Origin: Tricharina praecox
Taxonomy: Eukaryota
Reading direction: 5' to 3'
DNA: 64,000 nt
Assembly (NCBI RefSeq): GCF_024521635.1
Contig: NW_026250411.1
Coordinates: 744,001-808,000 of the forward strand
The first letter of the stretch is position 1; each line of letters opens with the position of its first letter. The position numbers and the translations under genes were made by a program. Positions 11,418 to 59,244 of the stretch are shown here, piece by piece. Under the pieces are notes generated by a model that made no database searches, was not told where the DNA came from, and was given only the letters and a program-made list of their open reading frames with translations.

Positions 11418-11992
11418 CGTGGGTGGCTGCTGCTGGTGATGGTGGGTGCGGGTGGTGATGGTCGTGTGTAGCTGACAGGTGGGTGAATGGGGGAGCTTAC
11501 ATAGAGGTGGTGTTTTGTGGGGTCGCTCGCTTGGGCTGTTACACGGCTTAGTGGCTTGGAGGATGGATTGGGTGCCGGGTAAAATACGCGAACCTTAAAC
11601 TCAGTTACTCGAGACGTCGAGTGATATCACGTACGAACACAAAACCTATCAATTATCTACTGTTCTATTGACCGGTATACGCAGAGTAATGTTTGTCATA
11701 GATATCATCGCCTCAGCAGAATTGATTAGCCTAACGATAGGTAAATCGCAGAGAAGTGGTAGAGTATCATGCTTGTACTAGGTAGGGGTATAAGATGCAA
11801 TAAAAACTAATAAAAAAGAAGCCGTAATAAGGACAAGAACACCGCAAACCCCCAGGTCATAAAAGCCATTAATACACTCCAACCCATCCCATCCATCCAT
11901 CCAACCAACCGTTTTGTGAGCGAACAAGAAAAAAGGTAAAAAAAGGAATCTCTAAAATATGCACAACTATCATCCCTCATCTGATATTACAA

Positions 11993-14900
11993 CTACCTGG
12001 CGATACCTCTTTGCTTCTCGAGCGACGCGGCAAGCGCCTTCGCGACGGGATTGCTCTCCGTCGGCGATCTGGGCGCCGCCTCGACTGCCGGGGGAGCAGG
12101 AGTGCTAGTCCGCGTAGCCGGTTGGCTGCGGTTGTGGGCCATGTGCGACTTCACCAGGTGGCCGGCGGCCAGGGCAGAGTTGAGAGAGAGCTCACCGGCC
12201 AGAACGGCGGCGGCAACGATTCGTGCTAGTCTTCGCGCGTTGTCACCGGGGTTGGTTTGGTGTGCGCCGCGGACGCCGAGCATGTCGAGCATTGCGCCTT
12301 GGGGCTCGAGAATGGTGCCACCACCGATGGTACCAACTTCGATCGAAGGCATAGAGACGGAGATGTTGAGATGGCCTTCGCGGGTCCTGGTGGGGGGTTA
12401 GTACGTTGGGATATCATGTGGAGAGGCGAGGAGGCTTACTTGTTCATGACGGTGATACAGTTGGAAGACTCTACGTTCTGAGCAGGATCCTGACCGGTAG
12501 CGAGGAAGATGGCGGTGACAATGTTCGCAGCGTGGGCATTGAACCCTCCCACACTTCCAGCCATGGCAGATCCAATGTAGTTCTTGGCGGTATTGAGGTG
12601 GATAAGATCGTCGACGCCGCACTTGAGAACACTTCTGCAGATATCGGCGGGAATGACAGCCTCGGCGACAACACTCTTTCCACGTCCATCGATCCAGTTG
12701 ATAGCGGCAGGCTTCTTGTCGGTACAGTAGTTTCCGGAGACCGAGATGATGTCCATGTCCTCGTATCCGCACTCGTTCTGCATGACCGATAGAGCGTGCT
12801 CGACTCCCTTCGAGATCATGTTCATGCCCATTGCATCACCGGTGACGGTCTTGAAGCGGATGTAGAGATAAGTACCAGCGATGGCGACCTTGATGGTCTG
12901 AAGTCTAGCGAAGCGCGAAGTAGAGTCAAAGGCCTTCTTGAGGATCTTCTGGCCCTCCTCGGAATCAATCCAGTTCTTGGCACCACCGGCCCTGCGAACG
13001 CTGGGGAACTGAACGACGGGTCCACGGGTCATACCGTCACCGGTAAGAATGGTGACGGCACCACCGCCAAGATTGATAGCCTTCGCACCACGAGAAGTAC
13101 TAGCGACGAGCACACCTTCAGTTGTAGCCATTGGGAGGTAGAAGTCTTCGCCATCGATGTTCATGGGACCAGCGAGACCGACGGGAAGAGGCATGAAACC
13201 GATAACATTCTCACAGCAAGCGCCAAGCACGCGGGCGTAGTCGTAGTCCTTGTAGGGGAGAAGCGAATGCTCCAGCAGTCCAGTCTTGTCCATGGTAATC
13301 TTGTTGCGCGAGACCATAGCCCGACGAATGGCAACAGCACGGGTGGGGTCGCCAAGAGTCTTCTCCAGGGCATATCCAGGGATCTTTCCACGAACAGCAA
13401 GCTCGACCAACTCGGCATTGTTGAGCTCCTTAGCGCGCTTCTCCTTGACCATTGCCTCGCACTCAGCAACAGTTCGGGATGACTGGGCATCATCATCGGT
13501 CTGATCATCGGCCGACTTCTGAGCCTTTCCACCACAGGTGCAGTTGACAGTGACGATGCGCTCGATAACCTGAGGCTTGGTGCTCTCCTTCGACTCGTCT
13601 TCCATCTCGGGCTCCTTAACGGTGTAGCGGGCAGCATTAAACAGGTATCCGTTGAACGCCAAACTGATGATCAGAGTGACGATGATCCATTTACCCAAAA
13701 CAGGGTCGTTGAGGCTTCTGAGGATACTTTCAATCATTTTGCTGCCAGGCCCTTCGCCGAAGAGATCCGAGGTGTCGTATGCGGACGGGCTTGGGTAGCC
13801 CTGGGTTGATCCGTAAACTTTCGGGATAGACGAGGGGTATGCGCTTGCATACTGGAGCTGGTACAGGATTGGCTGCAAGACGGTAACTACGAGGGCCTCG
13901 TGCGAGTTGGCCAGCAGCTGCTCAAGCGGCTTCCCGGCAACCTGCCACACGTTCATCTCGGGAACCATCGAGTCGCTGCCGGTGGTCAAGACGGTAGAGC
14001 TAGTGGTGTCTCTGTACGGGAGAGTAAACAAGTTAATGATGTTGACAGCGAAGAACCCAGCGACCATCCAGATCTTGAAGCTGCGGATGCTCGAGTCCTT
14101 GACCTTGGCGCCAAAAACGGATGTCGACTCTTCGGTAGCATCCCCGCCATCGGCGCGAGGCCACTCGTTGGACTTTGCAACGCTCTCAGCCACCCTATGG
14201 CTTACGCCATCCTCCTCCAATGCCTTACGGAGGGTGACGTGGCGCTTGATACGGTTGATCTCGAGCTTGACGCTGAGAATGGCAGTGTAGAAGGAGAACA
14301 GAAGGATGCAGTCGAATGCCAAGATCCAGCCTGCAAGGAAGCAGAATTGCCGCAGTCCACCCTGTACACCAGATGCCGCGCCGACAGCGAGGATCGCAAT
14401 TTCGATGACGTAATCCCTGACAATCAGGAACCCGGTCTCTTGGACTGCGGTCGCGACTGCGGTCTGGATTGTGCCGGCGGAGGATTTCTTGCGCTGGTCG
14501 ACATTCGCAGCGAGGACAGCACGGGTCAAGACGATTGGCTTCTCGAAGCCAATGATGACGACAAGGAAAGGCAGTCCCTCGGACAGAAGTACCATGTTGA
14601 TCGGAACACCCAGTTTGTGAGTGACAATGGAGGCGAACAAGAACGCGAAGGTCGAGGAGGTGAGCACAGTCGCGCCGAGCCAGAAGTTGGATCCGAGGCG
14701 ACGCATTTGCAGGAAAAGAGAGATGAACGAGAGGTGCATAGAGATGTACCCAAGGGCCATGATGGCAACATCGAGAGCATCGGCATTCTAGAATAGGAAT
14801 TAGAGGCCATCTTTTTTTTTAAAGACTTCGCGGGTTACGTACCTGAATCATATCCCAGACGTGCCTAACGGCTTCTTCCGCTCGTGCGATGATGCCGATG

Positions 14901-15466: not shown

Positions 15467-17909
15467 TGTGTCGACTGTGTCGTCTCTGAGACCCCGAGGT
15501 CGTCAGGGGGCTGGACTGCGCGTAGTTCTTGTTGCCTCCGGAATGGATGGTGCAAAAGAGTTTCGCAACTGAATGAGGGCAGGAGTGCGAGGAAGCTTTT
15601 TTTTCTGTTTCAGAAAGACACAGAGAAGCTCAGCGGGTCAAATCAACAACTCTGCCATGAGCCGTTATATTAGCAGGGACATCCAAGCGCGTACTGTGTA
15701 CGGGAACTCGTCGGAGCCGAGGATCAGGCACACGACAACAACAACGACAACAACAACAACAACAATAACGAGAATCGTACTCACAGATATGTTTCTTGAC
15801 CGAGCTTGCCCGGATGCAAATTGCTAGATGATATGGAGAGGCGTAGGCGGAGGAGGAGAAGGAGGAGGAGGAGGAGGGGAGGAGAGCAAGGGGCACACAG
15901 AGATTGGGTAGCAACGGACGGAATTCTGAGGGAAAGGAGATAGCGAGTCCTTTAACCTTTTCGGCGAATGGCCGACTTTTTTCGTCGTCTCCTTTTGGAA
16001 AGGTGATCCGCTGCCTTATTCGCTGTCTCCAGGGACCAAGAGTTGGTTCAGTGAACCCTACCGAAGCACCTAGCAAGTGGCTCACAGAGGCGCTAGAGAG
16101 CAAATATGTGAGTTGGGAAGCTCAACAACCGCAGAAAAGGTGAGGAGAGGTATCGTAGGTAGACAGAGAGAAGAGGAGAAGAGCCCCGTACACTCTATGG
16201 AGGGCGGGCAACACCAAAGGCATAACTACATTGCGAATAGATAGATGTGAGGGACGCGGGGCAACGTTCCTCCCAATTACGCGGCACATGTGTACTCTAA
16301 CCATGACAATACGATAATACCCATTCCACCCACCAAAAGTTGACGGTTACAGCTCCGACTTGGCAACACAGATGCACATCGTCAAACCATTGTTCTACAG
16401 ATGTAAGGAGGTTAGCGACGAAAGGGGCAGCGGGTGCGGCGGGGTCGTGGGAAGGAGGGGAACTACCAAACCGTGAATGAATGGAGGGGAGATGGTGGTG
16501 GTGGTGGTGGTGGTGAAGGAGGTGGTGGCAATGGTGGATGCGGAGATGCGGAGGTCTCGGCAGTTGTGGGCGTACAGATACCACGAGCCCACGGACGTGG
16601 AGACATCCCCCGATTCGCAGTTCAAATTCCGCAGGATATGTAGGGTATGATATGTACATCCACAATCGCTCCTATGATGTTCATCGCGGCAGCCAACGCA
16701 GTGCATAGACATAAAACTTGGGCCTCTTTAACCGCCGGCGGGAGATAGATAACTGGACGGCCATCCGGCGACGCACTCAGTCCGCTGGTGGGGTTTGACC
16801 ACGGCGCTGCTGCATCCAGAGTACATACCACATATGCTCCTCTGGGTAGTGGTAGTAGACGAGTGATTGCCCTTGATGGTCGTATCTACATCCACATGGC
16901 GAGCATAAACTGTGTAAACACCGACAACCACGCCCTGCGCCGCACCGGGGCATATAGAGCATATATCGTAGTTAAAGCAAAGTATGAAGTTGCCGAACAG
17001 CCGGAAAACACCATGAATAAGGGAATAAGGACGGTCACAAAATGATGAGCCGAGAAGCATGCAGGAGTGAGGAGTGAGGAGTGCACGGGCCTTCCACAAA
17101 CAAAAAGTGGCCGGAAGAAAAGAGCTTGTTGGTCGAGCTAAATTACGTTAGAGGAACGGTAACGGCTACATATCCGATGATCTGATTTCTCTCCGCGTGC
17201 CGATTCGATCGTCGTCACCAAACACACAGCGTGGCCATCTTCTCGCAGGTGGAGTAAACGTGGGTTCTCTACTCTAGAGAAGGGTATGTAACTGTATCAC
17301 CGCCAGCCATCTCTCTTCAACTGAGATGAGCATCTATATCGCAAAGCCCGAGGGGAATAAAACTGTATCTAGATACATACTGTGTCATCTCACCGCTATT
17401 GATGGAAATCTATCGCCGCCGTCCGTGCCCGCCCCCGCCCCGCGCCGCAGATCAGTTCCACCGTGGCCAGCAGCAAAAAGGACGCGTAGGGAAAGTTTGG
17501 ACGACAACGTCTGTGCCGTGCAATTGCAAAGATTCCTACACACGCTCACCAGTCCTTTACCGAATCTATCATATGAGCACCTACCAGGTAGGTACTCTAC
17601 CTACCTAAGCGCTAGCAGCAGTTCCCTTTCATCGTGATCGGAACATCGTCGTAGTTATACCCTGCCGCGGATTTGGATTTCCGAGCATGAGTATATATCC
17701 AATTCCCGGTACGACTTCACCGGCAAGAAACCGGGCAAACCCGCCGGTATGTACGTCAAGCACTTCATATCCGGTCCGCAAGCTCTCTTTCAGACGTTTC
17801 GGCACACATTCCCCCCTCCCCCGCCATGGGCAAGTTATCCGGCAGCACACAACCCCGCCATCCAGAGCTCCCATTACCTCCACCTCCACCTTCACCTCCC
17901 TCCACCCCT

Positions 17910-21876: not shown

Positions 21877-22089
21877 ATCGAACCGCAGGCCCAATCGTCC
21901 TCTGTTCAGGACCGTACATATTGAAGCTCAACTTCCCGAATTATTCACTTCCTTCATCAGAGTTTTTGCCCTTCACTCATCCCGTCTTCCTTCAACATAT
22001 TCGCACCGCTCCCTCGCATACGACTATATCCTTCCTGCATTTTCGGACGTTACCACACCGTACATCTCAAGACAGACCCAGATATCGGT

Positions 22090-23260
22090 ATGTCTACTGA
22101 AGGAGGACCTTTCGTCGATCCGGCGAGTTCAGCTTTCGACCCCCATTCACAGCCCATCACGCTGTTTTACCCCGGTGGCACGAACATCACGATCCCTCTT
22201 ACGGTGTACAACTTCCACAAGATGAAATCCCTGGAATGGAGCATCATGTTCGCGGTTCAGATCGGGGCCTGTGGGATCCTCCTCGTTCTTTTGACCGTTC
22301 TCACCAACGCAAAGAAGAGACGGACTTTCCTTCATGTCTGCAACTTGTTCGCTCTGGTTGCGACGATCGTTCGGGCCTCGCTCTCGCTATGCTATTATCT
22401 CGGTCCCTTCTTCGACACATACACCTTCTTCTCCGGCGATTTTACGAACTTTCCGTACACGCCGCGATATGTCTCCGTGGCATCAACAGTCACCGGATTG
22501 CTGCTGCAGATCGTCATTCACATCTCGCTGATCATCCAAGTGAGAGTGGTTTATACATCCCCCAAGGCGAACCTAATGATCACTCTCTTGGCGACCGCAA
22601 TTGCACTGGTTTCGGTGTCCTTCTTCGCTGTGGTTACGGTTCAAAGCGGGATGGCGACGATATCGTTGACGGCCTACCCTGGAGGATGGACATATACCGC
22701 CGCTAAAGCGATGTTTGCGGCTTCAATCTGCTTCTACTGCCTGATATTCGTCCTGAAGTTGGGTTACGCCATCTACCAACGACGTGTTCTCAAACTTCCG
22801 AGGTTCGGACCTATCCAGATCATCTTCACCATTGGATGCCAGACTATGGTCCTTCCCGGTATGTACTCGATTATTTCTCACCACGAAACAATGAAACAGA
22901 AAGCGGTAGCTGACCTCCCCTCGAACAGCCATCTTCTCGCTCATGGACGCCGTCCTCCCGAATATCGATGGGCTCTCGCAGCTCACACCAGCTCTGGTCG
23001 CCATTCTGCTCCCGCTATCGGGCATGTGGGCCGCAGCACGGGTCGATACTCCGCAATCAAGTCTCGCAACTGGGTGCGGTCCTTACAACGGCATCTTCAG
23101 CGACAACAAGACGGACTACTACGACCATCAAGCTCCCGGCACGAACCTCAGCAATCTCACATATAAAGAAGGTCACGAATCATTCATCAAGGCCGACGAC
23201 AGTACCGATATCGAGAGCTCTCCTAACTCCCGGTGCGAAGGCACCAGCTATCCTCACTAG
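22090..23260 (+). CDS. STE2: Alpha-factor pheromone receptor (fungal class D GPCR)
   Basis: FDPHSQ.ITL, IMFAVQIGAC, KLGYAIYQRRVL...FGPIQI...GCQTMVLP, LVAILLPLSGMWA, seven hydrophobic segments. Intron 22859-22928. Confidence 0.95.
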
Positions 23261-24647
23261 TAGTATCGATTATCCTGGGTGTTCTGCTGTCTCCTGTGCA
23301 TCTATGAGTGTATGATCGCTTGGTGTTTATCTTGTATTGATGGGACTCGGGAGTATTTTTGGGGAGCTGCGGGACGGTTATATCCACGTCTCATTTCTTC
23401 AACAGCATAATGGGGGTTAATTTGTTTGCACATGTTGTTTTTTGGCCTTTTTTCTTTCGTGTTATGTGAGGGGGTGTGTCTGCTCTTTGTACGTGTCCTC
23501 GGGGTTTCATGTGGGCGTTGCTATGTCTATGATACTTTTGGTGGGTCCTCTGGTCGGGTTTTTTTGTGCTGTATTCCATACTCGCCATAGCATCGACACC
23601 ACACTTCTATGTTACTCTCGCGTTTTTTTGTTCACTGTTCCGCGTTTGGAAGGGAGGGAACACCAATTTACCATCGCATACGGCTTGTCTATTTTCACGT
23701 TTGGGATTGGATGAAAGAACGCATGATATTTTATGTTCGAGTGAGCTCTTATGCCTCTTATTCGTCTCTATTATTGATGTCATGAGTGTTCCGAGTACTT
23801 GGGAGTTACCTGCTTCACGCCGAGCGCTCAACGTCTCAAGACTACATAGATGCATTGCGCGAGGCGTTAAGGAGGCTTGCATCCTGCGTGGGGGTCAGAC
23901 AAGCTGCACTTCTGAGATGCTCGCGGCGAGCCACAGAGTCTTCCGAGGCGAATTTCAAAGCTCGACGATATCTTGAGGGCTAGATGTGTTCGAAGCCACG
24001 TTTGAACGGTAGAGATATGTAACGGCGTCTGTAGATCCGTCTGGATTCCGGGCGAGTAGATCACGTTCCGGACTCGAGACCGAGGGTGCTTCCGCCACTG
24101 GAATGTGAGTTTCATCAGTAGACGAGGTGTAGTAGGGTACGAGGTATGTGCCCGGAGTACATGTATCAACCGGTTCGATCCGGTAGTTTTAGAATACCCG
24201 TGATGCGTATGTAACCGCAACTTCGAGACGAGCTTGAAGAATTGAACTTACCGGATTCGACCACAACCGAGGAAATAGACAGACAGACAAATGAAACGCT
24301 CGGAGGAATTCTGCACATGCACAAAGTCCTGGAGTCGGAGAGATTTAGCCGAGTGACTCATAGTGACCAGCCAGTTCTGGATGTACGCCTCTGCAGTGCA
24401 CACTCCATCCGTGGCTTCGTTCCCCACACCACAAACTTTCAAGAAGCCTGTCGCGCACAGTCGGACTAGCGTTCTGGGCACATGACTTTTGAGCCTCTTG
24501 ATTCAAAATTCCCTTCGCACTTTAGGGCTTGGGTCTGTCCTAGAACCATCAATCGCTTGCAGGCAAAGATCACGAACCCCACACCTTATCGCCCCACCAA
24601 AGAATCCACGAATCCACCCTTTTCCACGAACCCTCAAATCAGCAAAC

Positions 24648-26051
24648 ATGCGCCCGATATTATTGCAAGGACATGTACGCCGAAATGCTGCTGCTCAGTT
24701 TTCCGTTGTCTGAGGGAAGAATCAGGACGCTAACTCGAGAGGTGGTGGGATCTATAGGAGCGTAGTTTGACGCAGATCAAGTACGAGCGAAAACCTACCC
24801 CCCGTGTCCACCATGGCAAGTTCTGACAGAAAGCTGTTTTCTTTGCGAGCAGATACAACAAAGATGGTATATAAACGTCCCTCATCGCGATGCACGCTAC
24901 GGATTGGAAGCTGACGATCTACCCCGCCATGTAGGTGACCTTCTGTTCTCTACTGCGAAGGACCACATAGTGTGCGCTTGGTACTCTGGTATGTCGCACT
25001 TACCCACCGATGCTTGGGCTCCCGAGCTTACCGATGTGTCTGTTGCCAGCAAACGGCGAGCGTCTCGGAACATACAAGGGCCACCAGGGAGCGCTGTGGA
25101 CCGTTGATGTCGATGCCACGACCACCCTCCTCGCCACCGGAGCGGCCGACAACACAATTAAGCTGTGGGAGGTACGGACCGGACAGTGCTTGAAGACGTG
25201 GGACTTTCCGACGGCCGTCAAGCGTGTTGAGTTTTCGGATGACGGCACACTGCTGCTGGCTGTAACGGAGATGCGCATGGGACATCTGGGCACCGTTGTT
25301 GTGTTCCCGATCACGGTGGATGTCGAGGCTGAGCAGGCGGACGAGCCCCTCTTCACCATTACATTCCATGACAGCAAGGCTACTGTTGCCGCCTGGAGTT
25401 ATCTCAACAAATTCATCATCACCGGCCACGAGGACGGAACCGTGAGCCAGTACGATGGAAAGACGGGAGAGCTCATCCAGGACACACAGGCCCATGAGCC
25501 CGGCATGCAGATCACCGATATCCAGATGGCTCCCGACAGGACATACTTCCTTACTGCTTCCAAGGACAAGTCGGCCAAGGTACGCCGTGCGGATATGCAA
25601 GTATAGTTGGGGAACGAGGTATGCTGACTCGAATAGCTGATCGAAACCAACACCCTCCGAACCCTCAAGACCTACCAGACCGACACCCCCCTCAACTCGG
25701 CTGCCCTTACCGCGAGAAAGGACTTTGTCATCCTCGGAGGAGGACAGGAGGCCCGTGATGTCACCACCACATCCACCCGACAAGGAAAGTTCGAGGCACG
25801 GTTCTTCCACAAGATCTTTGAAGACGAGGTCGGACGTGTCCGCGGTCACTTCGGACCGTTGAACACTGTGAGTACCGCCGCCGTGGCTGCTGCCGCACGA
25901 ATCGTAGCTGACGGAGAGAATACAGGTTGCCTGCCACCCCATGGGTACCGGATACGCTTCCGGCGGAGAAGACGGTTACGTCCGCGTGCACCACTTCGAC
26001 AAGGCCTACTTTGATTTCAAGTACGAGGTGGAGAAGATGGCGAAGGTGTAA
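24648..26051 (+). CDS. TIF34: Translation initiation factor eIF3 subunit I (WD40)
   Basis: Spliced N-terminus [31 protein letters not shown]. Also [48 protein letters not shown]. Confidence 0.95.
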
Positions 26052-28412
26052 TCGACTTTGACTTTGTTGCGTCAATAAATCAATGTGTTTTTTTTCGTCC
26101 ATTTTTTTGTTTCTCTTCTTGCCAGATCTTCCTTCTCGTTGCAAACTAGTATTATGCTTTGGGCGTTTCGTTTCGTTCTTTGTTCACGGGATGGGATGGG
26201 ATGGGATGGGATGGGGGGATGGGTGCGGCTCGGCAGATTTCCACTGGATCTACGGTGTAGAGGATTTCGAGACATCAAAAGTTGCGCGGTTTCCGTTTCT
26301 GGTGGGGATTCATAGTGAGTCATCGTGTACCGCGGGTGCGTTCATAGTGAGTCAACATGTATGCACTGCAGGAGCGATTCCAACTGCATGTCTTCAGCCT
26401 TATCGTAGACCACCGTCCCCTTCCTTCCCAGAATGTCTCTCTGCCAGTCAGCCTGCCTTCACCTATGTAGGTCGATCATCACCAACAGCCTAGAACCAAG
26501 AACCAAGAACCACCCTGCCGCACGTTGTCTCACTCTACTACGCTGCTTGCGCTTCCCCGCCGCGAGTGCGAGCTGGTGATGACACACCTACTAACTGGCA
26601 CCGTAGTGTTTCCGCTGCGTCATGGTGTAGGTACTAGGCAGTGGATGCAGCAACAGTTACGGTAGATCCTACGTGTAGGCGATCCTGAAACTTCATAGAT
26701 GTTTCTTTTCTGTTTGATGCCGAGGGGTGGCGAGGGGTGGTACAGCGAGAGCCGTTGGGTGGCGGAGCGTGGTGTGACGGGGATGTAGCGGGGCATGGAG
26801 TGGCGTGGCGGAGAGTGGCGGGTTTCAAGTGGCGGCAGCAGTGCTGTGGTGGAGTGGCGGATTAGGTATCTGTACCCGTGAAGAATCTGTTTGGATATGC
26901 TGGATGGTATCCCCGGCAGACCGAATGGCCGAATGATTGACCGAGGAGCGTTAATGGCAATGTCAATGTCAATGTCCGCCCCCTGGTAAACAGTAAAGCT
27001 ATTGGTCTCCGCCAGGCGGCCCCCCAGTTCCCCGAAATTCTCCCAGATTCCACTCCTGATAGGTGGGTAGGAGGTAGGTAATTACCAATAGTTACCTGTA
27101 TTATAGAGTGCAGTACCCAGCTGAACTGAGCTGTGCTGAACTGAACACTGAGCTGAGCTGTGCTGGACTGGGCTGGACTGGGCTGAGCTGGGCCATCCAG
27201 CTACCAGGTTTACACCAGCGTATCCATCTCCGCTCCTACAGTCCCACAGTCCTACTCAGAAATCTCCGCTCCTACAATCTTATAATCTTACAATCCTACT
27301 CTGCCTACTCTACTCTACCGATTGGCTGGCCGGGGGATCCAGCTGAGATCACCACTGACCAGATGATGGGTACCTAGTATCTCCTCCCCCTCCCCCACCA
27401 CACCGATTTGCTGGCTGACTGGCGAGGTAGCACCAGCAGAGATCACCAGTAGAGACCACAGATTCACCACCGACCAGATGATGGGTACAAGGTATGTAGT
27501 AATCCCATCTCATCCACCACTCACCACTCACCACTCAACCACTCAACCACTCAACCCCTCCCCTTCACCCCTCCCCACCTCACCCCAGCACTCATCGGAA
27601 TGAAACAAACCAAAACTCCAAAGAAAAAAAACCGTTTGGTTGCCGCTGCACCGGGTTGACGGATGAGCACCGGGGGACGGTTTGATTAACCGCCTGACCT
27701 GATGATTCTTGATTTACGCGGCGGCGGCGGATAGTAGTTCCGAGATTTGATCGTTGTACGCACCTACCACCTGGCTACGATACGATATGATAGGTACGAT
27801 GGAACATTAGATACCTAGTCTGTGCCCGTAGACATGGCCATTTACCAATGGCGAAGGGACCGGCATCATCACCTCCATGATCCATCATGATCATCGACCA
27901 AGAAATAACCTCCACATCGGCATCATGGACTCAGAAGTGTCCAGTCGGTATCAACTGTATTATCGGAAGCACCTACTTCTTAAGCAGGTGGTAAAATGAA
28001 AGAAAGAAGAAAAAAAAAGTATGATACAAGGAAAGATTCAAGAAACAGCCAGAAACAGCCAGAAACAGCAAGAGAGAATGCGCCGTGGTCCTTCATCCCA
28101 TCCCGATCCCAAATTCCAATCCCAAATTCCGATCCATCCCAATATCCCATCCCAATATCCCCATTCCATCCATCCCAATATCCCATCCCAATATCCCCAT
28201 TCCATCCATCCCATTCATCCATCCCATTCATTATCCGTCGTACACATCAAGGGTGCGCAGATTTCCCAACCCAACAAAAACCAACCAAACAACCCAACAA
28301 ATCATACCAAAATAAAGCTCATAAGGGTGAAATAATATTGACAAGAAAGTAACCAACAAAACCTTGCCAGCACGGCGGAAACCCCAGAAAACCTCCCATA
28401 AAACAGAAATCA

Positions 28413-30964
28413 TTAAAACCGATTACTCATAACATCCACTACCTCCACTTCCCCCCGCACCTGCACCTGCCCCTTCGCCGGCCCCTGCGCCGGCACCTGC
28501 CTCGGCGCCTCGCCTTCGCCACCCATAAACATCAGCCTGGTCCTTCTGCGCTCGACCTTAACATTTAGCGGTGCCAGCTCAGCGCCGTGTTGTGGTTGGT
28601 GTTGGTGTTGGTGTTGGTGTTGGTGTTGGTGTGGGTGTGGGTGTGGGTGTTGTGAGTGTGGAGGTCTCGCCCCACTGCCGGGCGGCGGGTGCGGCCGTGG
28701 TGGTCGCTGCAGGTACCGCCGCGCGTGGTGCTCGCAGAACGCCTTCCCGTTGATCTCGTAGTAGTCATCGCCGAGGGGGCAGCGGCATTGCTATTCATTC
28801 TCGTCAGCACCTACTTGTGGGATCAAGATTGGGGGAAAACGTACGACGCAAGTAAAGCACCCCGGATGAAACCTTTCCCTCTGCACGGTCTCGAGGCAGG
28901 GCCCCTCGATGCCACGATTACACACGCCGCAGAGCGAGCGGTTGAGCTCGTGGTAGTGGTGGTGGCAGAACGGGAGGTTGTCGAGGACGTAGAACTCCGC
29001 GGACTGGAACGGCAGGTGACACGTTTGGCACACGAAACATGCCTTGTGGTAGCGCCCCGTGAGGCGCCCGTCGGCTGAGGAGACAGATTTCCCTACGATC
29101 TGCTCGCCGCAGCCCCGGCACGGACCTTTGCTCGTGGGATTGCGCTTGTGCCCGACGGGCGTGCCGTGCCGGCTGGGGGCGTGGCTGACGGGCGTGCCAT
29201 GCCGGCTCGGCGGTGCGGGCGGGGAGGGGGACTTGGATAGTGGCGGGGGAACGCGGGAATAAGAGTTGCTGGGACGGCGGCGGACCTCGTCGCGGTCGTT
29301 CTTGAGGGGGACGGGGGGCGAGGTCTCGCTGGGCCGGCGGGCGTCGCGGTCGTTCTTGGGCGGGACGAATGGCGGTGTCCGTTCCCGCCGCAACGGCTGG
29401 GGAAAGTTTAGGTCGTGTATCAGGTTGTCGATTTCCTCGCCGGTGCTGGTAGGAACTACGGGACGCTTGTGCTGGTCGTGGTTGAAAGTCCGCGGGTCCA
29501 CGAATTGCGGACCCTTCGTTCGAGATGTCTCGGATATGTCCGAGGCCGGCGGGCTCGACATGGAGCTCTTGGACAGATGCGAGAGCGCAGAAGACGAGCT
29601 GCTCGATACCGACAGCGTGGCGGCGTGTGCCTGTGATCGCTCATATCCGCCAGCTGAGGTTGGTGAGAGTTGTCGTGAAGCCGGCGATCTTTCCCTCGCT
29701 GGCGGTTCTGGCAGTGCGGAGGGAGGAGGAGGAGGAGGAGGAGGAGGAGGAAGAGGGAGTTCCTTCGCCTGCATCTCCTTATTGCGTCGAAACTGCGAGG
29801 GAGTGCGAGGGAGTCCCACTCCGGGATGCGGCGGTGCCCTCGGAGTCCTGGACGATCTCGCAGAGGCGGTAAATGTGTTTGCCCTACTCGGCGACTCTGG
29901 CACCAAATTTTCTCCCTGAAATTGTGGATTCGGCATTGTCTCCGCGCGGGTCAGGCGGTGGCCGTGAGGTGTGTTCAGCGAGGGATCGGTGATGCTCTCG
30001 GTTCTCCCCAGCATTCGTGGGACAGCGGCAGCAGCCGCCGAATCCCCTCGATGATCTCCCCGCGCCGATTCCTTCCAGCGGTATTTCCCCGCCTCCTCAT
30101 GCGCATGCTCCCTCGATTCGAACGTTTCCCGCCCGAGGGTGTGGTCGACGCTGTACTTCCTCGACGAGCTCCTATCGGGAAAGCGAGCGGCGGGCGGCGG
30201 CGCACGCTCGGTTCCTCTATCATTGCTCCCCCTCCTTGGCTCAAACGGCCCCGGGGCGATAGTGTTCATCTTTGCCATCAACGACAAGGCATTGATGGGA
30301 TTCGGCGCGGGCGACGGCGGCAAGCCTGGCGAGTACTGCGGACGAGATGCATACGTGCCGTTGGCATGCGATTGCAGCGGCGGCGGCACCGTCTGCGAGC
30401 CCTCGCGCATGTGGCTCTTCCGCGCGGGCTCGAACAGCGGGAACGCGCAGTCGATGTTGTACGCGGACGCGGGAGTCTCCAGTGGCTGCCCATCCTGCGG
30501 CGTCGTCGGCGAATGTGCCCGTGAGCCTGAGGCACTGCTCGATGGCGTCAGGGAGTCGACTCCCAGGAAGGACTTGTCTACTGTAACCGTCAGAGTCCGA
30601 AGAGAGCATAAAACAACAGCACGGATGGATGGTTTGACGGGTGTCAAAACGAGGCATGTAGGCATGTACGTACTCGCAATGTAAGGATCTATCTGTGGAA
30701 GTCTGAACTGCTTCTTCTGCGAAGATGATGGGGCAGAAGGCCGTCTCATCGATTGAGGACCTATTACCATGCATTAGTTCCATGACCACATGTAGACACA
30801 CTCGTTGGGGTTGTGCGTATGTGTATATCGTGGAACACACCTGCCTGCGCTACTTCCCCACAGCTGTGGTCTCCCATCAAGTGTATCTCTACGTCGCGGC
30901 CGCAAACCGAGCATTTGATGCAAGGCAGCTGGGCGTTCTCCCTCATGGTTGTAGCGGTAGCCAT
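28413..30964 (-). CDS. LIM-domain protein (N-terminal CxxC..H..C finger, Pro/Ser-rich linker, C-terminal LIM domains)
   Basis: CRGCGEQIVGKSVSSADGRLTGRYHKACFVC..C, second LIM C..C...H..CF.C|..C..C..H, ERRRTRLMFM tail and an HP/HQ dipeptide repeat. The N-terminal exon 30842-30964 is less certain. Confidence 0.85.
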
Positions 30965-50510: not shown

Positions 50511-53001
50511 ATGAAAGACAACTTCTCCCACAGCATCCAACAGGTCTGTTCCCCTCGAATGCCTCTTCTTCCTAGCTAAACCCCTCCCCCGCAGTTCCTC
50601 CACGCGCCCTCCGACTCGGACTACCTCGACCAGCTCGTCACCGTCATCCACGAAGCATGCTCCATCGGACGGGAACATGCGCTCGCCGAGCAGCTCCAGC
50701 ACTTCTCCGAGAGCCGCGAACACGATATTGAACGCCTCTGCAATACCAACCACCAAGAATTCGTGTCATCGGTTAACCAGCTACTCAACGTACGCAAGGG
50801 CACTGTCGACCTCACCGACGAAATTCTCAAGCTCAACGAGTCCATCCAGACCAGCACGCAGAAAGTTGTCGAGCACAAGAAGGCATTGGTGGATTCACGG
50901 GACGTTCGGCAGAACATCGACGAGGCCACGCAGGCGTTGCGATTGTGTCTCGAGGTGCTGGGTCTTGCCAACCGCGTCGAGGAACTGCTGAAGAACAAGA
51001 AGCATTATGCTGCGCTGAGGACGCTCGACGAACTACAGAATGTGCACCTTAAGGAGGTCGTGCAGTTTGATGTGGCGGAGATGATTCAGAATTCCGTGCC
51101 GGCGATGCAGGGCATGGTCAAAGAGGCCGTGATGACGGATCTCAATAGCTGGCTCTACCGTATTCGTGAGAGCTCGCAGCTACTCGGCCAGGTCGCGTTC
51201 GATCAGACGGAACTACGGCGCCAGAGGCAGAAGGAGCGCGTCAACAAGAATCCGTATCTGAGGCTGTTCAAGCTCAACTCGGCAATCGAGCTGGTGCTAG
51301 ATGAGCGTGAAGAGTTCGATGTGCTGGACAACGAGGATGTCAGGATTGATTTCGACCCGCTCTTTGAGTGTTTGCATATTCATGAGGCGCTCGGTGAACG
51401 CGATGAATTCCGATTGACCTACACCAATACCAGACGCCAACAGAAGGAGCTATTGATGGCCGTGAGCCTAACGCTTTCGGATGCGGATATTACGGGACTC
51501 AATCATTTGTTGGAGAGCATAGCCGGATTTGCGATTCTGGAGAAGGCGACGATGAAGAAGACGACGAATTTCAGGGGGAGTCAGGATGTGGATGAGCTCT
51601 GGGATAGTATGTGTAAGAAGGCAATTAGCATCATCAGTCCTGCGCTGAACGGTATCACGGCTGCGGGTGCATTGTTGAGGGTGAAGAATGTGTTGGCTCT
51701 TTTCATACAAACTATGGATGTTGGTTTATTCTTTCCGATCTGCTGTCTGCTGTGGACTGAACTGACTGCGACAGAGCTGGGGTTATGCGGTTGATAATTT
51801 TGATAACTTCCTACTGATCCTCTTCAACGGGTACTCCAAGCTACTCAAGAAGGAGTTCTATCAGAATTTCAAGGATATCATGGCGAATGAGGATTTCGGG
51901 CCGATGCAGATTCAAACACCAGAGGAGTACGAAAACGTGCTCAAAGCTAGTTGGTTCAAGGACCCTATCCCGAACCGAGAGTGAGTATATCTGAGGGTGT
52001 TATTGGCATCTTCTGCTAACCATTACCCTAGATATCCTACTGTTCTACCATTCTCGCAGATGTACCCGTTGTGCTGCATGGACATCCGGGACTTCTTGAA
52101 TCGGTACTACTTCTTTTCGGACGAGTATTTCCAGCATCAGAATGCCATCGATGAGGAACTCAAAGCCTCACTCGACGACATTCTCTGCAACCATGTCTGT
52201 GCAGCACTTGTGGAGCGTCTGAATTCTAACAATCTCGGTCAGCTTGTCCAGATCCTGATCAACCTGGAACAATTCGAATACGCCAGTCGGGAGCTCGAAG
52301 GGCTCCTCGTCGAAGTACGACAGTCAGACCAGGGCGGCTCAGTCTCTATCAAAGCCACAGAACGTTTTCGAAGCGAGAAGAAAACCGCCGAGAAACGGAT
52401 TTTCGAGCTCGTCAATAGCAAGATCGACGATTTGGTAGAAACGGCAGATTACAATTGGATGGGCGCGAAGCCGAGAACTCGGCCCAGCGAGTATCTGCAG
52501 CAGATGACCCTGTTTTTGAATAATATCATGGGTTCGGCACTCCTTGCCCTGCCGGAGGATATCAAGGGTCTCATATACTTCGATGCTTTAAGTCACATCG
52601 CGACTTCTATCCTCGTCCGTTCCTCCCTTCCATCCGCTCTTCTCGGAAACCCTCCTAACCTACGTACACAGGCTCTCCCTATGTCGGAATCCGTCAAAAC
52701 AATCAACAAAGTCGCCGTACAAGATCTCGACACGGACGTAACCTTCCTGCAAAGGTTCGTCGAAGGCCTTGGGGACCCCACGCTTCCCCAAATCTTCGAG
52801 GAGCTCGGACAAACAGTTGACCTCCTACAAAACGACAACCCGGACGAGTTCTACGACATCGGCATGCGCATGCGGCGTTACGCCAATGTCGATCCACTCA
52901 CTGGGCCGGTGTTACTGGAGAAATTGATGGCTGGCGAGGCTGAGAGGGAGAGGGCTGCTGCTACACCGGTGAGGACTGGGTTGGCGGCGAGGTTTCGGTA
53001 A
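50511..53001 (+). CDS. SEC15: Exocyst subunit Sec15
   Basis: DYLDQL, IERLCNTNHQEFVSSVNQLL, LPFSQMYPLCCMDIR, QLVQILINLE.FE, IFELVNSKIDDLVETADY.W. About 4 introns. Confidence 0.93.
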
Positions 53002-53764
53002 TGGCATGGGGAAATAATGTGAGACGTGGGGAGTTCTGGAGTCTGTTTGGGGCACTTGCTTACCTTTACCTACTATTATACATACTTGTGTCTCGTCGTT
53101 TGGCGAGTGAGCTCGATATATGGGTGGTGTAATGCAGTATAAATACTATGGCTCGGTTGGTCGCCCCCCGATTATTTGGGGTATTGAGATGGTCCGTCTA
53201 GCTGCGGGATTGTCGGAAGCCCGTTCGTATGTACTGCACAACCCAACGGGACCTGGGATGAGTATACCTAGGGGTGCGGGAGCTGGAAACTTATGTGACG
53301 ACTTGGTTTGGCTACACATGTGAAAGTTACTCGAGTGAGACTATATGTATGAATACTATGATCGACAATATCCGGAAGGCTTGATATCATGACCAGTGTG
53401 GAGCGGACGGGGGGTATTGAGACCGAACGTGTGTATACAGGTCACCCAGTGTTCGCCTCAATCTTATGTATTTCGACGGAAAACAACGCACCACGAATGT
53501 GCCAATCATCGTCCGACCCGTGGCAGGTGGTAGTACGCATGCAACATCTGGTGAAACCTCATACCCCTCACGGCAGCGAAAACAAGTGTATGTACGGAAC
53601 TGTCGCCTGTGATTTTCGCTCCCGCGCCCTCACAACAGCAACACAGATACGCACTATCCTACAGTCAATCACCTTCCTATAGCTCATCATCATCCTACGG
53701 TCCACCGCCACCATCTCCCCCGCCTTTCGGTCGATCACGCCGTCGGTGAACCTTGCCACCACCA

Positions 53765-56700
53765 ATGTCTTTCGGCATCAGCATCGGCGACTTCATTGCT
53801 TTCGGCAATCTTGCGATGGGGGCATATGCTCGCCTCCAGGAGACCGGAGGGTCTGCGGCCGATTACCAGAGCCTGAAGCTCATGCGGCGGTCCTTCGGGG
53901 AGACCCTTGTCAGCGTGGAAACCGATTTGCAGAGCACGAACTCCTGCTCCCTACCGAAACCGCTCGTCAATGCAGCCAGGAAACATCTCAGCGAGTGCTC
54001 TCAACTTCTACGGAATTTTGACGAAATAACCAAAAAGTACGATGCTAGTCTTTCACAAGGAGGATCCGGGAAGAAGGTGAAAGACTACATTCGAAAGCTG
54101 GGTTGGGGCGGTATGAAAGACGCCACAAGGGAGCCATTTCGCCGCCTCCAAGAGCACATCACGGCGATAGATATGCTGTTGACCGTCAACAATGCGTGAG
54201 TTATGACTATCCACTAACAATGCATGAATTGATTGGTTTCCTCTACGCTTACAGGCACCGGATTGAGGAACTTTACGTCATCTCGCGAAGGAAGCAACTG
54301 GCAGAAGTTCCGCGAAGCCTTGATTGGAGCGACAACAAACCCATCAAGCTTATAGATGCGTTCGATAGACAGATTACAGTGCCGTATGAGTGGTGCGAAA
54401 CATGGGAGGTACAAGCCGATTCGAGCAGACGCAGTCAGGCATGAACCTTACAGTACACAAGGCCTTTCACGACGTACTACAGAGTAGCTTTCATGGCCGG
54501 CGAGAGAGGAAGTGGGTCGAAAGCATGGCATTTGAAATCTTCGACGAAGACAATAAAGCCGCAATGATTGCCCCAAAAAGCTGGGAAGACGTTATATCAC
54601 CAGGCAAGACCCTTTCCATGTCCATGCGACTGAAAAGGCAGGAAGAGCCGTCGCGAGGAACAGAGCAGGAATGTCCTAGTTGTCGAACTCTGTACAAAGG
54701 CTATGAAAACAGCAAGGCCCTTGAACGGGTTCGATGGTAACTTCACCTCAAATGATCCTGAGATTCTATCAGACTTAACGATCGCGTGTATCACGAAAGC
54801 CTCAAATGCAAGACGTGGTTTCAAGTGTCTTCGGCACCTCGAATCATGGAACTTTCAGACGATGACAGCGTTCAAGCTTTAGTTGACACTGCTATTGACG
54901 AGGCAAACGCGATGCGGATCTGCCGTTGGCACATTGTGGTCGAGCAGACTGAGCAGTGAGTTCTCTAAGAGTGTGGTTGGTGATGATGGCGGCTAAGTGA
55001 TGCCCGCCTGGCTTGATTCGATAGGCTGTGAGTCCTTCCTATCCGGAGAAGGTGATGATGATGGTGGCTGATGCCTGCCTGGCGTAATTCGATAGCCTGT
55101 GAGTCCTTCCTATCCGGAGAAGGTGATGATGATGGTGGCTGATGCCTGCCTGGCGTAATTCGATAGGGAGTGAGTCCTTCCTATCCGGAGAAGGTGATGA
55201 TGATGGTGGCTGATGCCTGCCTGGCGTAATTCGATAGCCTGTGAGTCCTTCCTATCCGGAGAAGGTGATGATGATGGTGGCTGATGCCTGCCTGGCGTAA
55301 TTCGATAGGCAGTGAGTCCTTCCTATCCGGAGATGGTGATGATGATGGTGGCTGATGACTGCCTGGCGTGATTCGTTAGATGGTAAGTCTTTCTTACCCG
55401 GAGATGGTGATGATGATGGTGGCTGATGCCTGCCTGGCGTAATTCGATAGGGAGTGAGTCCTTCCTATCCGGAGATGGTGATGATGATGGTGGCTGATGC
55501 CTGCCTGGCGTAATTCGATAGGAAGTGAGTCCTTCCTATCCGGAGAAGGTGATGATGATGGTGGCTGATGCCTGCCTGGCGTAATTCGATAGGGAGTGAG
55601 TCCTTCCTATCCGGAGAAGGTGATGATGATGGTGGCTGATGCCTGCCTGGCGTAATTCGATAGCCTGTGAGTCCTTCCTATCCGGAGATGGTGATGATGA
55701 TGGTGGCTGATGCCTGCCTGGCGTAATTCGGTAGCCTGTGAGTCCTTCCTATCCGGAGAAGGTGATGATGATGGTGGCTGATGCCTGCCTGGCGTAATTC
55801 GATAGCCTGTGAGTCCTTCCTATCCGGAGAAGGTGATGATGATGGTGGCTGATGCCTGCCTGGCGTAATTCGATAGGGAGTGAGTCCTTCCTATCCGGAG
55901 ATGGTGATGATGATGGTGGCTGATGCCTGCCTGGCGTAATTCGATAGGCTGTGAGTCCTTCCTATCCGGAGATGGTGATGATGATGGTGGCTGATGCCTG
56001 CCTGGCGTGATTCGTTAGACGGTAAGTCTTTCTTACCCGGAGATGGTGATGATGATGGTGGCTGATGACTGCCTGGCGTGATTCGTTAGATGGTAAGTCT
56101 TTCTTACCCGGAGATGGTGATGATGATGGTGGCTGATGCCTGCCTGGCGTAATTCGATAGGGAGTGAGTCCTTCCTATCCGGAGAAGGTGATGATGATGG
56201 TGGCTGATGCCTGCCTGGCGTAATTCGATAGGGAGTGAGTCCTTCCTATCCGGAGAAGGTGATGATGATGGTGGCTGATGCCTGCCTGGCGTAATTCGAT
56301 AGCCTGTGAGTCCTTCCTATCCGGAGAAGGTGATGATGATGGTGGCTGATGCCTGCCTGGCGTAATTCGATAGGGAGTGAGTCCTTCCTATCCGGAGATG
56401 GTGATGATGATGGTGGCTGATGCCTGCCTGGCGTAATTCGATAGGCTGTGAGTCCTTCCTATCCGGAGATGGTGATGATGATGGTGGCTGATGCCTGCCT
56501 GGCGTAATTCGATAGGAAGTGAGTCCTTCCTATCCGGAGAAGGTGATGATGATGGTGGCTGATGCCTGCCTGGCGTAATTCGATAGGGAGTGAGTCCTTC
56601 CTATCCGGAGATGGTGATGATGATGGTGGCTGATGCCTGCCTGGCGTAATTCGATAGGCTGTGAGTCCTTCCTATCCGGAGAAGGTGATGATGATGGTGG

Positions 56701-58263
56701 CTGATGCCTGCCTGGCGTAATTCGATAGGGAGTGAGTCCTTCCTATCCGGAGAAGGTGATGATGATGGTGGCTGATGCCTGCCTGGCGTAATTCGATAGG
56801 CAGTGAGTCCTTCCTATCCGGAGATGGTGATGATGATGGTGGCTGATGCCTGCCTGGCGTAATTCGATAGGGAGTGAGTCCTTCCTATCCGGAGATGGTG
56901 ATGATGATGGTGGCTGATGCCTGCCTGGCGTAATTCGATAGGCTGTGAGTCCTTCCTATCCGGAGAAGGTGATGATGATGGTGGCTGATGCCTGCCTGGC
57001 GTAATTCGATAGGGAGTGAGTCCTTCCTATCCGGAGATGGTGATGATGATGGTGGCTGATGCCTGCCTGGCGTAATTCGATAGGCAGTGAGTCCTTCCTA
57101 TCCGGAGATGGTGATGATGATGGTGGCTGATGCCTGCCTGGCGTGATTCGTTAGACGGTAAGTCTTTCTTACCCGGAGAAGGTGATGGTGATGGTGGCTG
57201 ATGCCTGCCTGGCGTAATTCGATAGGGAGTGAGTCCTTCCTATCCGGAGATGGTGATGATGATGGTGGCTGATGCCTGCCTGGCGTAATTCGATAGGCAG
57301 TGAGTCCTTCCTATCCGGAGATGGTGATGATGATGGTGGCTGATGCCTGCCTGGCGTGATTCGTTAGACGGTAAGTCTTTCTTACCCGGAGATGGTGATG
57401 ATGATGGTGGCTGATGACTGCCTGGCGTGATTCGTTAGATGGTAAGTCTTTCTTACCCGGAGATGGTGATGATGATGGTGGCTGATGCCTGCCTGGCGTA
57501 ATTCGATAGGCAGTGAGTCCTTCCTATCCGGAGATGGTGATGATGATGGTGGCTGATGCCTGCCTGGCGTAATTCGATAGGCAGTGAGTCCTTCCTATCC
57601 GGAGATGGTGATGATGATGGTGGCTGATGCCTGCCTGGCGTAATTCGATAGGGAGTGAGTCCTTCCTATCCGGAGATGGTGATGATGATGGTGGCTGATG
57701 CCTGCCTGGCGTGATTCGTTAGACGGTAAGTCCTTCCTATCCGGAGATGGTGATGATGATGGTGGCTGATGCCTGCCTGGCGTGATTCGTTAGACGGTAA
57801 GTCTTTCTTACCCGGAGAAGGTGATGGTGATGGTGGCTGATGCCTGCCTGGCGTGATTCGTTAGACGGTAAGTCTTTCTTACCCGGACATGGTGATGGTG
57901 ATGGTGGCTGATGCCTGCCTGGCGTAATTCGATAGGCAGTGAGTCCTTCCTATCCGGAGATGGTGATGATGATGGTGGCTGATGCCTGCCTGGCGTGATT
58001 CGTTAGACGGTAAGTCTTTCTTACCCGGAGAAGGTGATGGTGATGGTGGCTGATGCCTGCCTGGCGTGATTCGTTAGACGGTAAGTCTTTCTTACCCGGA
58101 CATGGTGATGGTGATGGTGGCTGATGCCTGCCTGGCGTGATTCGTTAGATGGTAAGTCTTTCCTATCCGGAGAAGGTGATGATGATGCTAGCTATGCCGA
58201 CTAAGTGACATTAGCCTGGCTCCAGACGACATGGAACGAGCCGCCTCGAGTGGTGGCGACTAA
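53765..58263 (+). CDS. Putative 50-exon gene: Helo-like/SesA-type N-terminal domain, fungal ubiquitin-like domain, Zn ribbon, and a micro-exon-encoded charged helical tail
   Basis: Normal exons 53765-54195, 54255-54408, 54462-54736 and 54800-54955 encode MSFGISIGDFIA, PIKLIDAFDR...P.EWC.TWE, W...I.PG..LSMSM and CPSC...C|LKCKTWF. These are followed by 45 3-nt micro-exons and a terminal exon 58215-58263. The first four exons are more secure than the tail. Confidence 0.7.
54956..58214 (+). repeat. 71-bp tandem array: a 68-nt intron-like unit plus a variable 3-nt micro-exon, 44 full units with degenerate first and last introns
   Basis: Consensus GTGAGTCCTTCCTATCCGGAGAWGGTGATGATGATGGTGGCTGATGCCTGCCTGGCGTAATTCGATAG+NNN. 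Triplets fall at 55025+71n for n=0 to 44, with no indels. The ORF track has no ORF across the array. Confidence 0.97.
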
Positions 58264-59244
58264 GCAAGTACCTAGGGCTGGAATTGATTGCACGTAAGTG
58301 CTACCCCCCGAACGGCCTTCACATATGGTGCTTGTGGTTCAAAAGGTCTTATTTTTCATGCTGGTCTAATTATAGGCCAGGTATCAGCCGGCAGGAGAGA
58401 AGAGAACAGAGGAAGGGGGGGTGTGGAATGTGTTCGTGGCTCCGGTCTTGGATATGTGTTCCGGTGTTGGCGTAAAAGTTTGTAATGAAACCAAATTGTG
58501 GATTGTGTATGGGAATCGACTGGAGATTGTGTTCGAGCGCATGGAATGCAAATGGAGTGGGCGTTAATCCGCTCCACTCACATCGAGTTCAACTCGAAAA
58601 GTCCGAACTCAAAGTGAATCGTTGCGACGTCGTCCGTGTCCGAACCTACTGCTCGTCTGCCGACAACCTTCGTCGTCCGAATCCATGGGACGCTGATGCA
58701 GACTTCAGAGCTCAACGGTAGATATGTAGGTAGGGTTTGACTCTTGCTCGCATCAGAATCCGGTACATACAGAAGAAAGAAAGGATGGTCAAATTCCACC
58801 CGAGAACTCGACAAGGCAGCCACGGCCGACGGCGCACTAGTTCATCAACCCTCGATCACCGTGAGACGAGCCTGGCGCGCGCAGCGAGAGTAGCGTGCGA
58901 ATTGGCCGCAGACACCCTAGGATACCTATTGGTTAGGCAAGCGGCCCCGACGTTAGTCACTCGTACATTCCTGTATGGGCGGGAGTAGGTTTAAACGCAT
59001 GTACACTCACTCGGAAAGTGATGTCCATTGTTTCCGAGTCCTTTCCGAGTCCTTTTCCTTTTCCTACTTTTTGTTTTTGTCTTTTGGGGTGTTCTCAACT
59101 TCTGATGTGTAGGCAGCCTCTTTCGCCATGGTCCATGGAGGACTCCTTTCCCTTCACGCCCTATATATGGCTCTGGCTCTGCGAGATACTACCTACCTAT
59201 TATATACCTGACGTGGCTGAGCCATGGTTTTAAAGATGCAGAGG

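Follow-up and report, generated by a model that had tools for sequence, protein, structure and literature searches.

A tandem array of short introns and three-nucleotide micro-exons at the 3′ end of a Tricharina praecox gene

We analysed a stretch of 64,000 nucleotides (the window) from contig NW_026250411.1 of Tricharina praecox, a fungus of the family Pyronemataceae in the Pezizomycetes, in which a gene for a protein with a ULD_2 ubiquitin-like domain runs into a tandem array of short intron-like units separated by exons of three nucleotides (nt) each. Logan contigs from four public runs (X3, X4, X6 and X10) were placed on positions 53700–55100, so that the first 145 bases of the array were covered. 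X3 derives from organism A (study P2) and X4 from organism B (study P3); because the contigs of both join across three ordinary GT..AG introns, these two runs were taken as complementary DNA (cDNA).

The host gene and the anatomy of the array

The features of the gene and of the array, with the evidence for each, are as follows.

53765..54195, + strand: exon 1, with the start ATG at 53765 (open reading frame (ORF) and translation; the N-terminus of the relative P0001 aligns; RNA joint)
54255..54408, + strand: exon 2, in which the ULD_2 domain begins (Pfam PF22893, E 1.2e-6; RNA joints on both sides)
54462..54736, + strand: exon 3, with the remainder of ULD_2 and the first half of a CPSC...CLKC zinc-ribbon-like motif (PF22893, E 4.6e-11; RNA joints)
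54800..54955, + strand: exon 4, ending ...VVEQTE + CA, phase 2 (RNA joint 54736/54800; frame from the ORF)
54956..55024, + strand: array intron number 1, a diverged unit copy of 69 nt (absent from the spliced X3 and X4 contigs)
55025..58151, + strand: core array, 45 micro-exons of 3 nt every 71 nt and 44 introns of 68 nt (parsing; RNA for micro-exons 1–26)
58152..58214, + strand: candidate last array intron, 63 nt, with CTAAG 10 nt ahead of TAG (from sequence only)
58215..58263, + strand: predicted final coding segment C-LAPDDMERAASSGGD, with TAA at 58261–58263 (translation by coordinates)
58294..58375, + strand: putative intron of the 3′ untranslated region (UTR), GTAAGT...TAG, ~30 nt past the stop (splice motifs)

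Exon 1 is joined to exon 2 (54195 to 54255) over a GT..AG intron in X3 and X4 contigs alike. The ULD_2 match reaches 29.1 bits in exon 2 and 43.2 bits in exon 3, both above the curated PF22893 threshold of 24.5, and 79.2 bits in P0001, a 350-residue hypothetical protein of T. praecox that is the nearest named relative of the gene product and shares 69% identity with exon 3; further relatives were named from Wilcoxina mikolae and Geopyxis carbonaria. The original prediction, made from the DNA letters, had taken the reading phase of the array from the upstream gene, and this phase is upheld by the extension of ULD_2 over exons 2 and 3, by the exon joints in the RNA contigs, and by P0001, which reads ...VVEQTEQ at the position of the exon 4 end. 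Read without splicing, the exon 4 frame meets an immediate stop, TGA at 54957–54959, after ...EQTEQ. P0001 itself terminates in ...VVEQTEQRYDLNL, six residues past the point at which the arrays of the window and of a related locus described below (L001) start; the P0001 gene may hide a similar array that annotation has overlooked.

Tandem Repeats Finder returned a single array at 54998–58198 with a period of 71, 45.1 copies, 94% matches and no indels. Splice-signal parsing of 54956–58214 resolved 46 intron-like units, of which 34 have the donor GTGAGT and 12 the donor GTAAGT, with the acceptor TAG in all 46. A CTGAT motif, branch-like by sequence, lies 24 nt before the 3′ end in 44 of the 46 units, and the first and last units carry CTAAG. 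The introns measure 68 nt in 44 units, 69 nt in the first and 63 nt in the last. The array displays the full set of signals of spliceosomal GT–AG introns (GTRAGT donor, CTRAY-like branch motif and YAG acceptor). The units are separated by 45 spacers, each exactly 3 nt long, from 55025–55027 through 58149–58151, in the very order that had originally been listed (GGA 13, ACG 8, GCA 7, CCT 6, GCT 5, ATG 4 and GAA 2 times); GCA is also the sequence of the closing bases of exon 4. As in a minisatellite, the units stand head to tail at constant length, the edge copies are diverged, and copy number varies among relatives. A 34-base core of the unit has 44 matches in the window, all within the array, against an expectation of 0 from shuffles, and an exact 25-mer of the unit gave 0 matches to metagenome contigs. 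The copy number of 45 is that of the assembly, and RNA backs the triplet order for the first 26. At the distal edge, positions 58214 and 58225 are the final bases of candidate acceptors TAG and CAG, and the last exon would thus start at 58215 or 58226.

The 5′ part of the intron is constant apart from an A/T polymorphism (19 A, 26 T) that recurs at 55053 and each 71 nt onwards, 25 nt after the micro-exon. Depending on the base, a possible small hairpin is shifted in register (CCTTC...GAAGG versus ATC CGGA GAT); overall, no conserved structure was supported.

Splicing of the micro-exons in RNA contigs

Micro-exons 1–26 are joined in RNA, in agreement with their original description as spliced units. 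In a 397-nt X3 contig, exon 3 is joined to exon 4 with 0 mismatches in the pieces shown, and from 54956 on the contig continues with 72 letters that have no counterpart in the genomic stretch; the 30 of these letters that are shown correspond to micro-exons 1–10 in genomic order, together with the first base of number 11. A second X3 contig holds an intron end, the joined micro-exons 10–18 and an intron start, and a further X3 contig joins micro-exons 19–26. The corresponding X4 contig, of 1296 nt, has introns 1–3 spliced out, and mismatches to the window affect 9 of its 1082 exon bases. Past exon 4 it carries 126 letters of another series (GCT ACC GGA GCA ACG ACC ATG GGA CCC ATG at its start), equivalent to at least 42 triplets for the array of organism B; 8 of the first 10 triplet positions differ from those of the window, at 99% exon identity. 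Many contigs represent partly spliced molecules, with 2–9 joined triplets flanked by unspliced introns and just two such triplets in several cases, and the removal of array introns is not strictly 5′ to 3′.

These joints bear directly on a simpler reading of the locus, namely that the gene ends at TGA 54957–54959 and that the array is an unspliced minisatellite of the 3′ UTR or intergenic region, or a single large intron, whose resemblance to splice signals is coincidental. The unspliced frame does stop right after ...EQTEQ, and the annotated orthologue P0001 ends merely six residues on; however, the triplets joined straight after exon 4 in RNA contigs of two studies contradict this reading, which we regard as barely credible. 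Nor can it be rescued by template switching of reverse transcriptase between repeats, an artefact reportedly described by Roy and Irimia in 2008, which would delete multiples of 71 nt rather than 68-nt GT..AG units with 3 nt left behind. Assembly error was likewise considered as a source of the joined triplets and rejected, as 72 letters of triplets that follow the genomic order are beyond what a graph of 31-mers can invent.

The remaining runs gave less material, with a single contig on exon 1 only from X6 and three short contigs from X10. One of the latter, from a soil metatranscriptome (55028–55080), consists of an intron end, four joined triplets starting with AGG, and an intron start; AGG is absent from the window array and suggests a further array variant in nature. 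Among the contigs placed, none lay over 54957–54968, an uncovered part that proves nothing alone, and among those listed for X3 and X4 none lay on ordinary introns 1–3. Contig depth summed over the repeat unit came to about 111,000–153,000 in X3 and 22,000–30,000 in X4, compared with about 2,000 and 890 for the exons, ratios of 50–75 and 25–33 in a measure that cannot rank gene parts. The figures give the appearance of abundant array introns; they may come from splicing that is slow, from excised introns that are stable or from further copies that are transcribed.

Related arrays and the inverted pattern of conservation

A protein-guided scan of metagenome contigs recovered two related loci, L001 and L002, from two samples; both belong to one species and have 57% protein identity to the window in exon 3, and the L002 contig ends within the array. 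The L001 orthologue shares the four-exon layout, and its exon 4 ends ...MEQAK + CA, again in phase 2 and with GCA as the last bases. At the same codon as in the window there follows an array with a period of 72 bp, 23 micro-exons and introns mostly of 69 nt (17 of 23). Its tail, HRITDPFPDFGEYEDLELLESLLEE and then SLGNSQG, starts with the proline-rich HRITDPFPDFGEY and is not alignable with the window tail save for a similar Leu/Glu stretch, ...EDLELLESLLEE; the tail of organism B also starts proline-rich (QLPEQRPWDPW). Two truncated extra copies of the 3′ end of the gene lie in L001 at 5213–5816 and 16985–17265, which hold exon 4 or merely part of the array and adjoin retroelement-like ORFs (for RNase H, a match of 24.8 bits that narrowly misses the 25.8 cut-off), and a poly(A) run cuts one of the truncated arrays. 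All three L001 arrays are copies of the same gene's 3′ end, and the number of triplets is 45 in the window and 23, 5 and 3 in the L001 copies. Judged from these sequences, two lineages have retained the array while its peptide has changed.

Comparison among units showed that variation is concentrated in the micro-exons. In the window, pairwise diversity is 0.56, 0.59 and 0.64 at the three micro-exon sites versus a mean of 0.052 over the 68 intron positions, and in L001 it is 0.37, 0.72 and 0.72 versus an intron mean of 0.15, so that triplet diversity is ~11 times that of the intron in the window and ~4 times in L001. Only four sites of the window unit have three or more alleles, and three of these are the micro-exon sites. 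One identical 68-nt intron follows four different triplets (15 units), and another follows three (11 units). Variants flanking a micro-exon are linked across it and define two junction types; this linkage would place the points of exchange within introns, with the (GAT)n run as a plausible site. Between the window and L001 the order of conservation is equally inverted, with array introns at 78% identity as consensus sequences (54/69) and 81% as a pair of units (z 3.8 versus shuffled interiors), the four coding exons at 64–72%, the ordinary introns at 57–63% (z 1.7–2.1) and the flanks at 47–55%. Conservation is highest over the first ~23 nt and the last ~24 nt of the intron, which touch each micro-exon, and these conserved ends may stem from a requirement that 46 introns be spliced with no help from exon sequence.

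An intron conserved above exons and ordinary introns, next to a peptide that is not conserved, also raises the possibility that the introns themselves are the product, with the locus acting as host for ~46 copies of a small intron-derived RNA and the micro-exons as mere spacers. The unit does contain UGAUGA and CUGA motifs, and it shows weak matches to the box C/D class of small nucleolar RNA (snoRNA). However, the Rfam search of the unit returned only sub-threshold box C/D matches, of 22.7 bits (E 0.13) against a gathering score of 45 and of 21.4 bits against 80, which in our judgement match the (GAT)n and CTGA motifs by chance. Only ~9 nt separate the C-like box from the D-like box and the CUGA doubles as the branch-like site, and the unit does not present the C/D boxes, terminal stem and known-family score of a box C/D snoRNA host intron. 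No stable fold was found in the five units compared with shuffles (z –0.28 to +1.42 for single units), and RNAalifold gave no consensus structure over 44 distinct units. The contig depths are unusable as proof of intron accumulation, and overall we consider it quite unlikely that the introns are the product of this gene.

The partly spliced forms may point to another role, in which 46 introns that lie 3 nt apart, too close for all to be recognised at once, would slow the maturation of the message, and splicing capacity would set the output or the length of the tail regardless of its sequence. Such forms are common among the contigs, and a retained intron brings an immediate in-frame stop at 46/46 donors (G|TGA in 34, G|TAA in 12); incompletely spliced messages would therefore encode a shortened tail rather than a frameshifted peptide. 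The persistence of the array in two lineages despite peptide change fits this role too. Kinetics and levels are nevertheless beyond what contigs can show, and the wide variation in copy number (45, at least 42, and 23) would be surprising in a finely set timer. We regard such a regulatory gate or delay as very unlikely.

The predicted tail and a proposed origin of the array

Spliced throughout, and with the last exon taken from 58215, the gene would encode 399 residues ending C-LAPDDMERAASSGGD-stop; a last exon from 58226 would create a TG|A stop and a protein of 383 residues. The 45 array codons read QLLDLQWEKDLLLELRWEDLELKELEQELEQREQRWQQERRRQRR in phase 2 (L 11, E 10, Q 8, R 8, D 3, W 3, K 2), with a net charge of –8 over the first 31 residues and +5 over the last 14, and the tail lies beyond RRWHVV, the last conserved motif of the protein. 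The originally proposed translation, with array codons limited to seven residues, is thus reproduced from the phase of exon 4. This restricted set arises because seven triplets are read in phase 2, where CT+N gives Leu, GA+R Glu, GA+Y Asp, CA+R Gln, AA+R Lys, CG+N Arg and TG+G Trp.

It had further been proposed that the alphabet and order of the triplets are selected for an amphipathic, coiled-coil-like helix, which in the full form of this reading would have its own function. The make-up of the peptide, rich in Leu, Glu, Gln and Arg, is indeed helix-friendly, and the independently arranged L001 array writes the similar Leu/Glu stretch noted above. The comparison of real with shuffled orders that had been suggested as a check was made, and it revealed no advantage of the real order in hydrophobic moments or heptad contrast. 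Specifically, 1,564 of 5,000 shuffled orders were stop-free, and the observed hydrophobic moments were reached by 42%, 61% and 37% of these; the observed heptad contrast of 0.55 was reached by 11% and does not mark out a coiled coil, insofar as these simple measures of our own, rather than a dedicated coiled-coil program, can judge it. The triplet order therefore carries no sign that an amphipathic or a heptad pattern has been selected, and the residue set follows from the phase. Nor is a helix-forming sequence conserved, given the proline-rich, non-alignable tail starts of organism B and L001.

P0002, a homologue of 433 residues from an RNA-derived Logan contig of 1491 nt, carries an 85-residue tail rich in Leu, Glu, Pro and Arg after RRWHVVQE. 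Its structural model is of low confidence (mean predicted local distance difference test score (pLDDT) 58.8, below 50 for residues 306–394) and places a disordered stretch before a helix at 388–423, a weak point in favour of helix selection. Among the best 150 of 741 relatives of P0002 (E ≤0.001), no best-scoring stretch extends past query residue 371 of 433; the tails of these wider relatives are unrelated, and C-termini past the RRxH motif vary freely across the family. Protein searches found no RNA-derived copy of this species' own protein with the tail. Selection for a helix in the full sense set out above is accordingly unlikely, and what stands of the proposal is the helix-friendly composition.

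We propose that an intron of the ULD_2 gene was amplified together with GCA into a 71-bp minisatellite that is spliced unit by unit into a 45-residue tail with fast turnover, and this is probably the correct explanation of the locus. It starts from the anatomy of the array, the splicing of micro-exons 1–26, the two further lineages, the hypervariable triplets and the conserved intron, and it would extend to the splicing of micro-exons 27–45, the use of the acceptor at 58214, translation, the duplication origin and unequal exchange. The simplest first step would have been a tandem duplication of the last coding, phase-2 intron with the three exon bases GCA, followed by expansion; this origin is suggested because exon 4 ends in GCA, an array triplet, and because the unit recurs in diverged form at both edges of the array. 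Each unit would then be a self-sufficient spliceosomal intron (GTRAGT, CTGAT branch-like site and TAG) plus a 3-nt exon. The spliceosome would take out the 46 introns singly, each recognised as a unit, leaving 45 triplets in the messenger RNA; given the phase of the ancestral intron, each codon would be built from two neighbouring micro-exons. Neighbouring introns 3 nt apart could hardly be bound simultaneously, which would fit the partly spliced forms. The run of triplets would add 45 residues, among which Leu, Glu, Gln and Arg prevail, ahead of a short terminal exon, and copy number and triplet order would turn over quickly, most likely via unequal exchange between near-identical introns.

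Several points weigh against this explanation. The RNA label of X3 and X4 is a guess, their cDNA nature was deduced from their splice joints, and the evidence consists of contigs rather than reads, so that amounts and rare forms are beyond judgement. RNA cover ends at micro-exon 26, with micro-exons 27–45 and the last acceptor outside it, and the many partly spliced forms mean that a fully spliced message may be just one of several products. Translation of the tail is deduced rather than seen, and the open frame lies within the range of chance: stop-free orders make up 31% of 20,000 triplet shuffles for the window and 82% of the shuffles for L001. An open array frame was accordingly rejected as a sign of selection. 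Finally, the intron is conserved beyond the needs of plain splicing, a feature that amplification and unit-by-unit splicing leave unexplained.

As an extension of the amplification model, the array may act as a generator of codon cassettes, in which near-identical introns, retained to scaffold splicing and recombination, let unequal exchange reshuffle, add or drop single codons and the tail diversifies under selection, far faster than point mutation would allow; splicing from a donor to any acceptor, always in frame, would perhaps contribute. This suggestion is drawn from the hypervariable triplets, the identical introns beside different triplets, the change of 8/10 triplets at 99% exon identity, and the retention of the arrangement in lineages of only 57% protein identity. 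We offer it tentatively, as a possibility that is doubtful at present.

The structure is built from ordinary parts, namely spliceosomal introns, micro-exons and a minisatellite, and is extreme in degree and unusual in its pattern of selection. In the open full-text literature searched, neither this fungal gene nor any array of 3-nt exons in tandem is described. For human genes, the birth of introns from tandem arrays was reportedly described by Zhuo, Madden, Elela and Chabot in 2007, where the repeat unit is likewise said to contain splice signals, so that a minisatellite creates introns; those cases are reported to be alternatively spliced longer exonic repeats, whereas here dozens of complete introns lie between 3-nt exons, each of which adds one codon. 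Introner-like elements of fungi and introners of algae are multiplying, near-identical spliceosomal introns dispersed in unrelated genes, in contrast to the present unit, which in the 64-kb window and in L001 turned up solely as a tandem array and at a single position in one gene family. Fungal NLR-type recognition genes carry hypervariable but internally conserved WD40, ANK and TPR repeats that change rapidly by unequal exchange. These share with the array near-identical scaffolds with few hypervariable positions, but their scaffold is a protein repeat, whereas the scaffold conserved here is an intron that never reaches the protein.

Closest in exon size are the micro-exon genes (MEGs) of Schistosoma mansoni, where very short symmetrical exons of 3–81 bp encode a variable segment (PMC10526429). 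As in the array, runs of short symmetrical exons encode a variable part of the protein; MEG introns are described there as long (up to 5 kb) and non-tandem, with exons mostly longer than 3 nt and secreted parasite proteins as products (PMC10526429). The present gene falls outside that type, in which micro-exons encode most of a secreted protein; it has tandem introns of 68 nt and micro-exons for the C-terminal 45 of a predicted 399 residues. SNHG14 is presented in PMC11608373 as a transcript with dozens of tandem introns, each releasing SNORD115 or SNORD116, and it resembles the array in its dozens of repeated introns in one transcript and in an intron conserved above the exons. Its introns, however, are long, with a bona fide box C/D snoRNA, and its exons non-coding, whereas the array triplets continue an ORF. 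Single 3-nt micro-exons are reported for RPS24 (PMC12207440) and MAP4K5 (PMC8632122), where a 3-nt exon can thus be recognised and spliced; in these animal genes the exon stands alone between long introns, whereas here 45 stand in a row, 68 nt apart.

A spliceosome that processes dozens of adjacent introns 3 bases apart works far under the exon sizes usually thought workable, and the array offers a natural substrate for studies of intron definition, splicing order and steric limits. With 46 introns in 3.2 kb, it would be a direct and still active case of intron gain via tandem duplication. The protein would be lengthened or changed by one codon per repeat in a manner invisible to gene finders, and annotation would end at the TGA in the first donor. 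A conserved intron with a hypervariable exon is the reverse of the usual pattern and raises a testable question as to the target of selection; codon cassettes, if real, would form a one-codon analogue of the hypervariable repeats in fungal recognition genes.

Some minor features accompany the arrays. An intron-like GTRAGT...YAG stretch lies ~30–40 nt past the predicted stop in the window (58294–58375) and in all three L001 copies, where splice motifs place the candidates as follows.

about 12253–12330, L001: intron-like stretch of the 3′ UTR
about 5884–5960, L001: intron-like stretch of the 3′ UTR
about 17330–17410, L001: intron-like stretch of the 3′ UTR

Coding on the minus strand of the window was considered and rejected, as the His-rich ORFs of 64–70 residues switch frame at every unit (71 is not a multiple of three). 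In L001, where the 72-bp repeat is a multiple of three, a 640-residue ORF runs through the array on the opposite strand (10326–12248, –); it matches no Pfam family and was rejected as a gene, and simple ORF callers would mis-call it. Upstream of the host gene in the window lies an exocyst Sec15 homologue (50580–53001, +) of at least two exons, with matches to EXOC6_Sec15_N (E 2e-62) and Sec15_C (E 1.4e-97).

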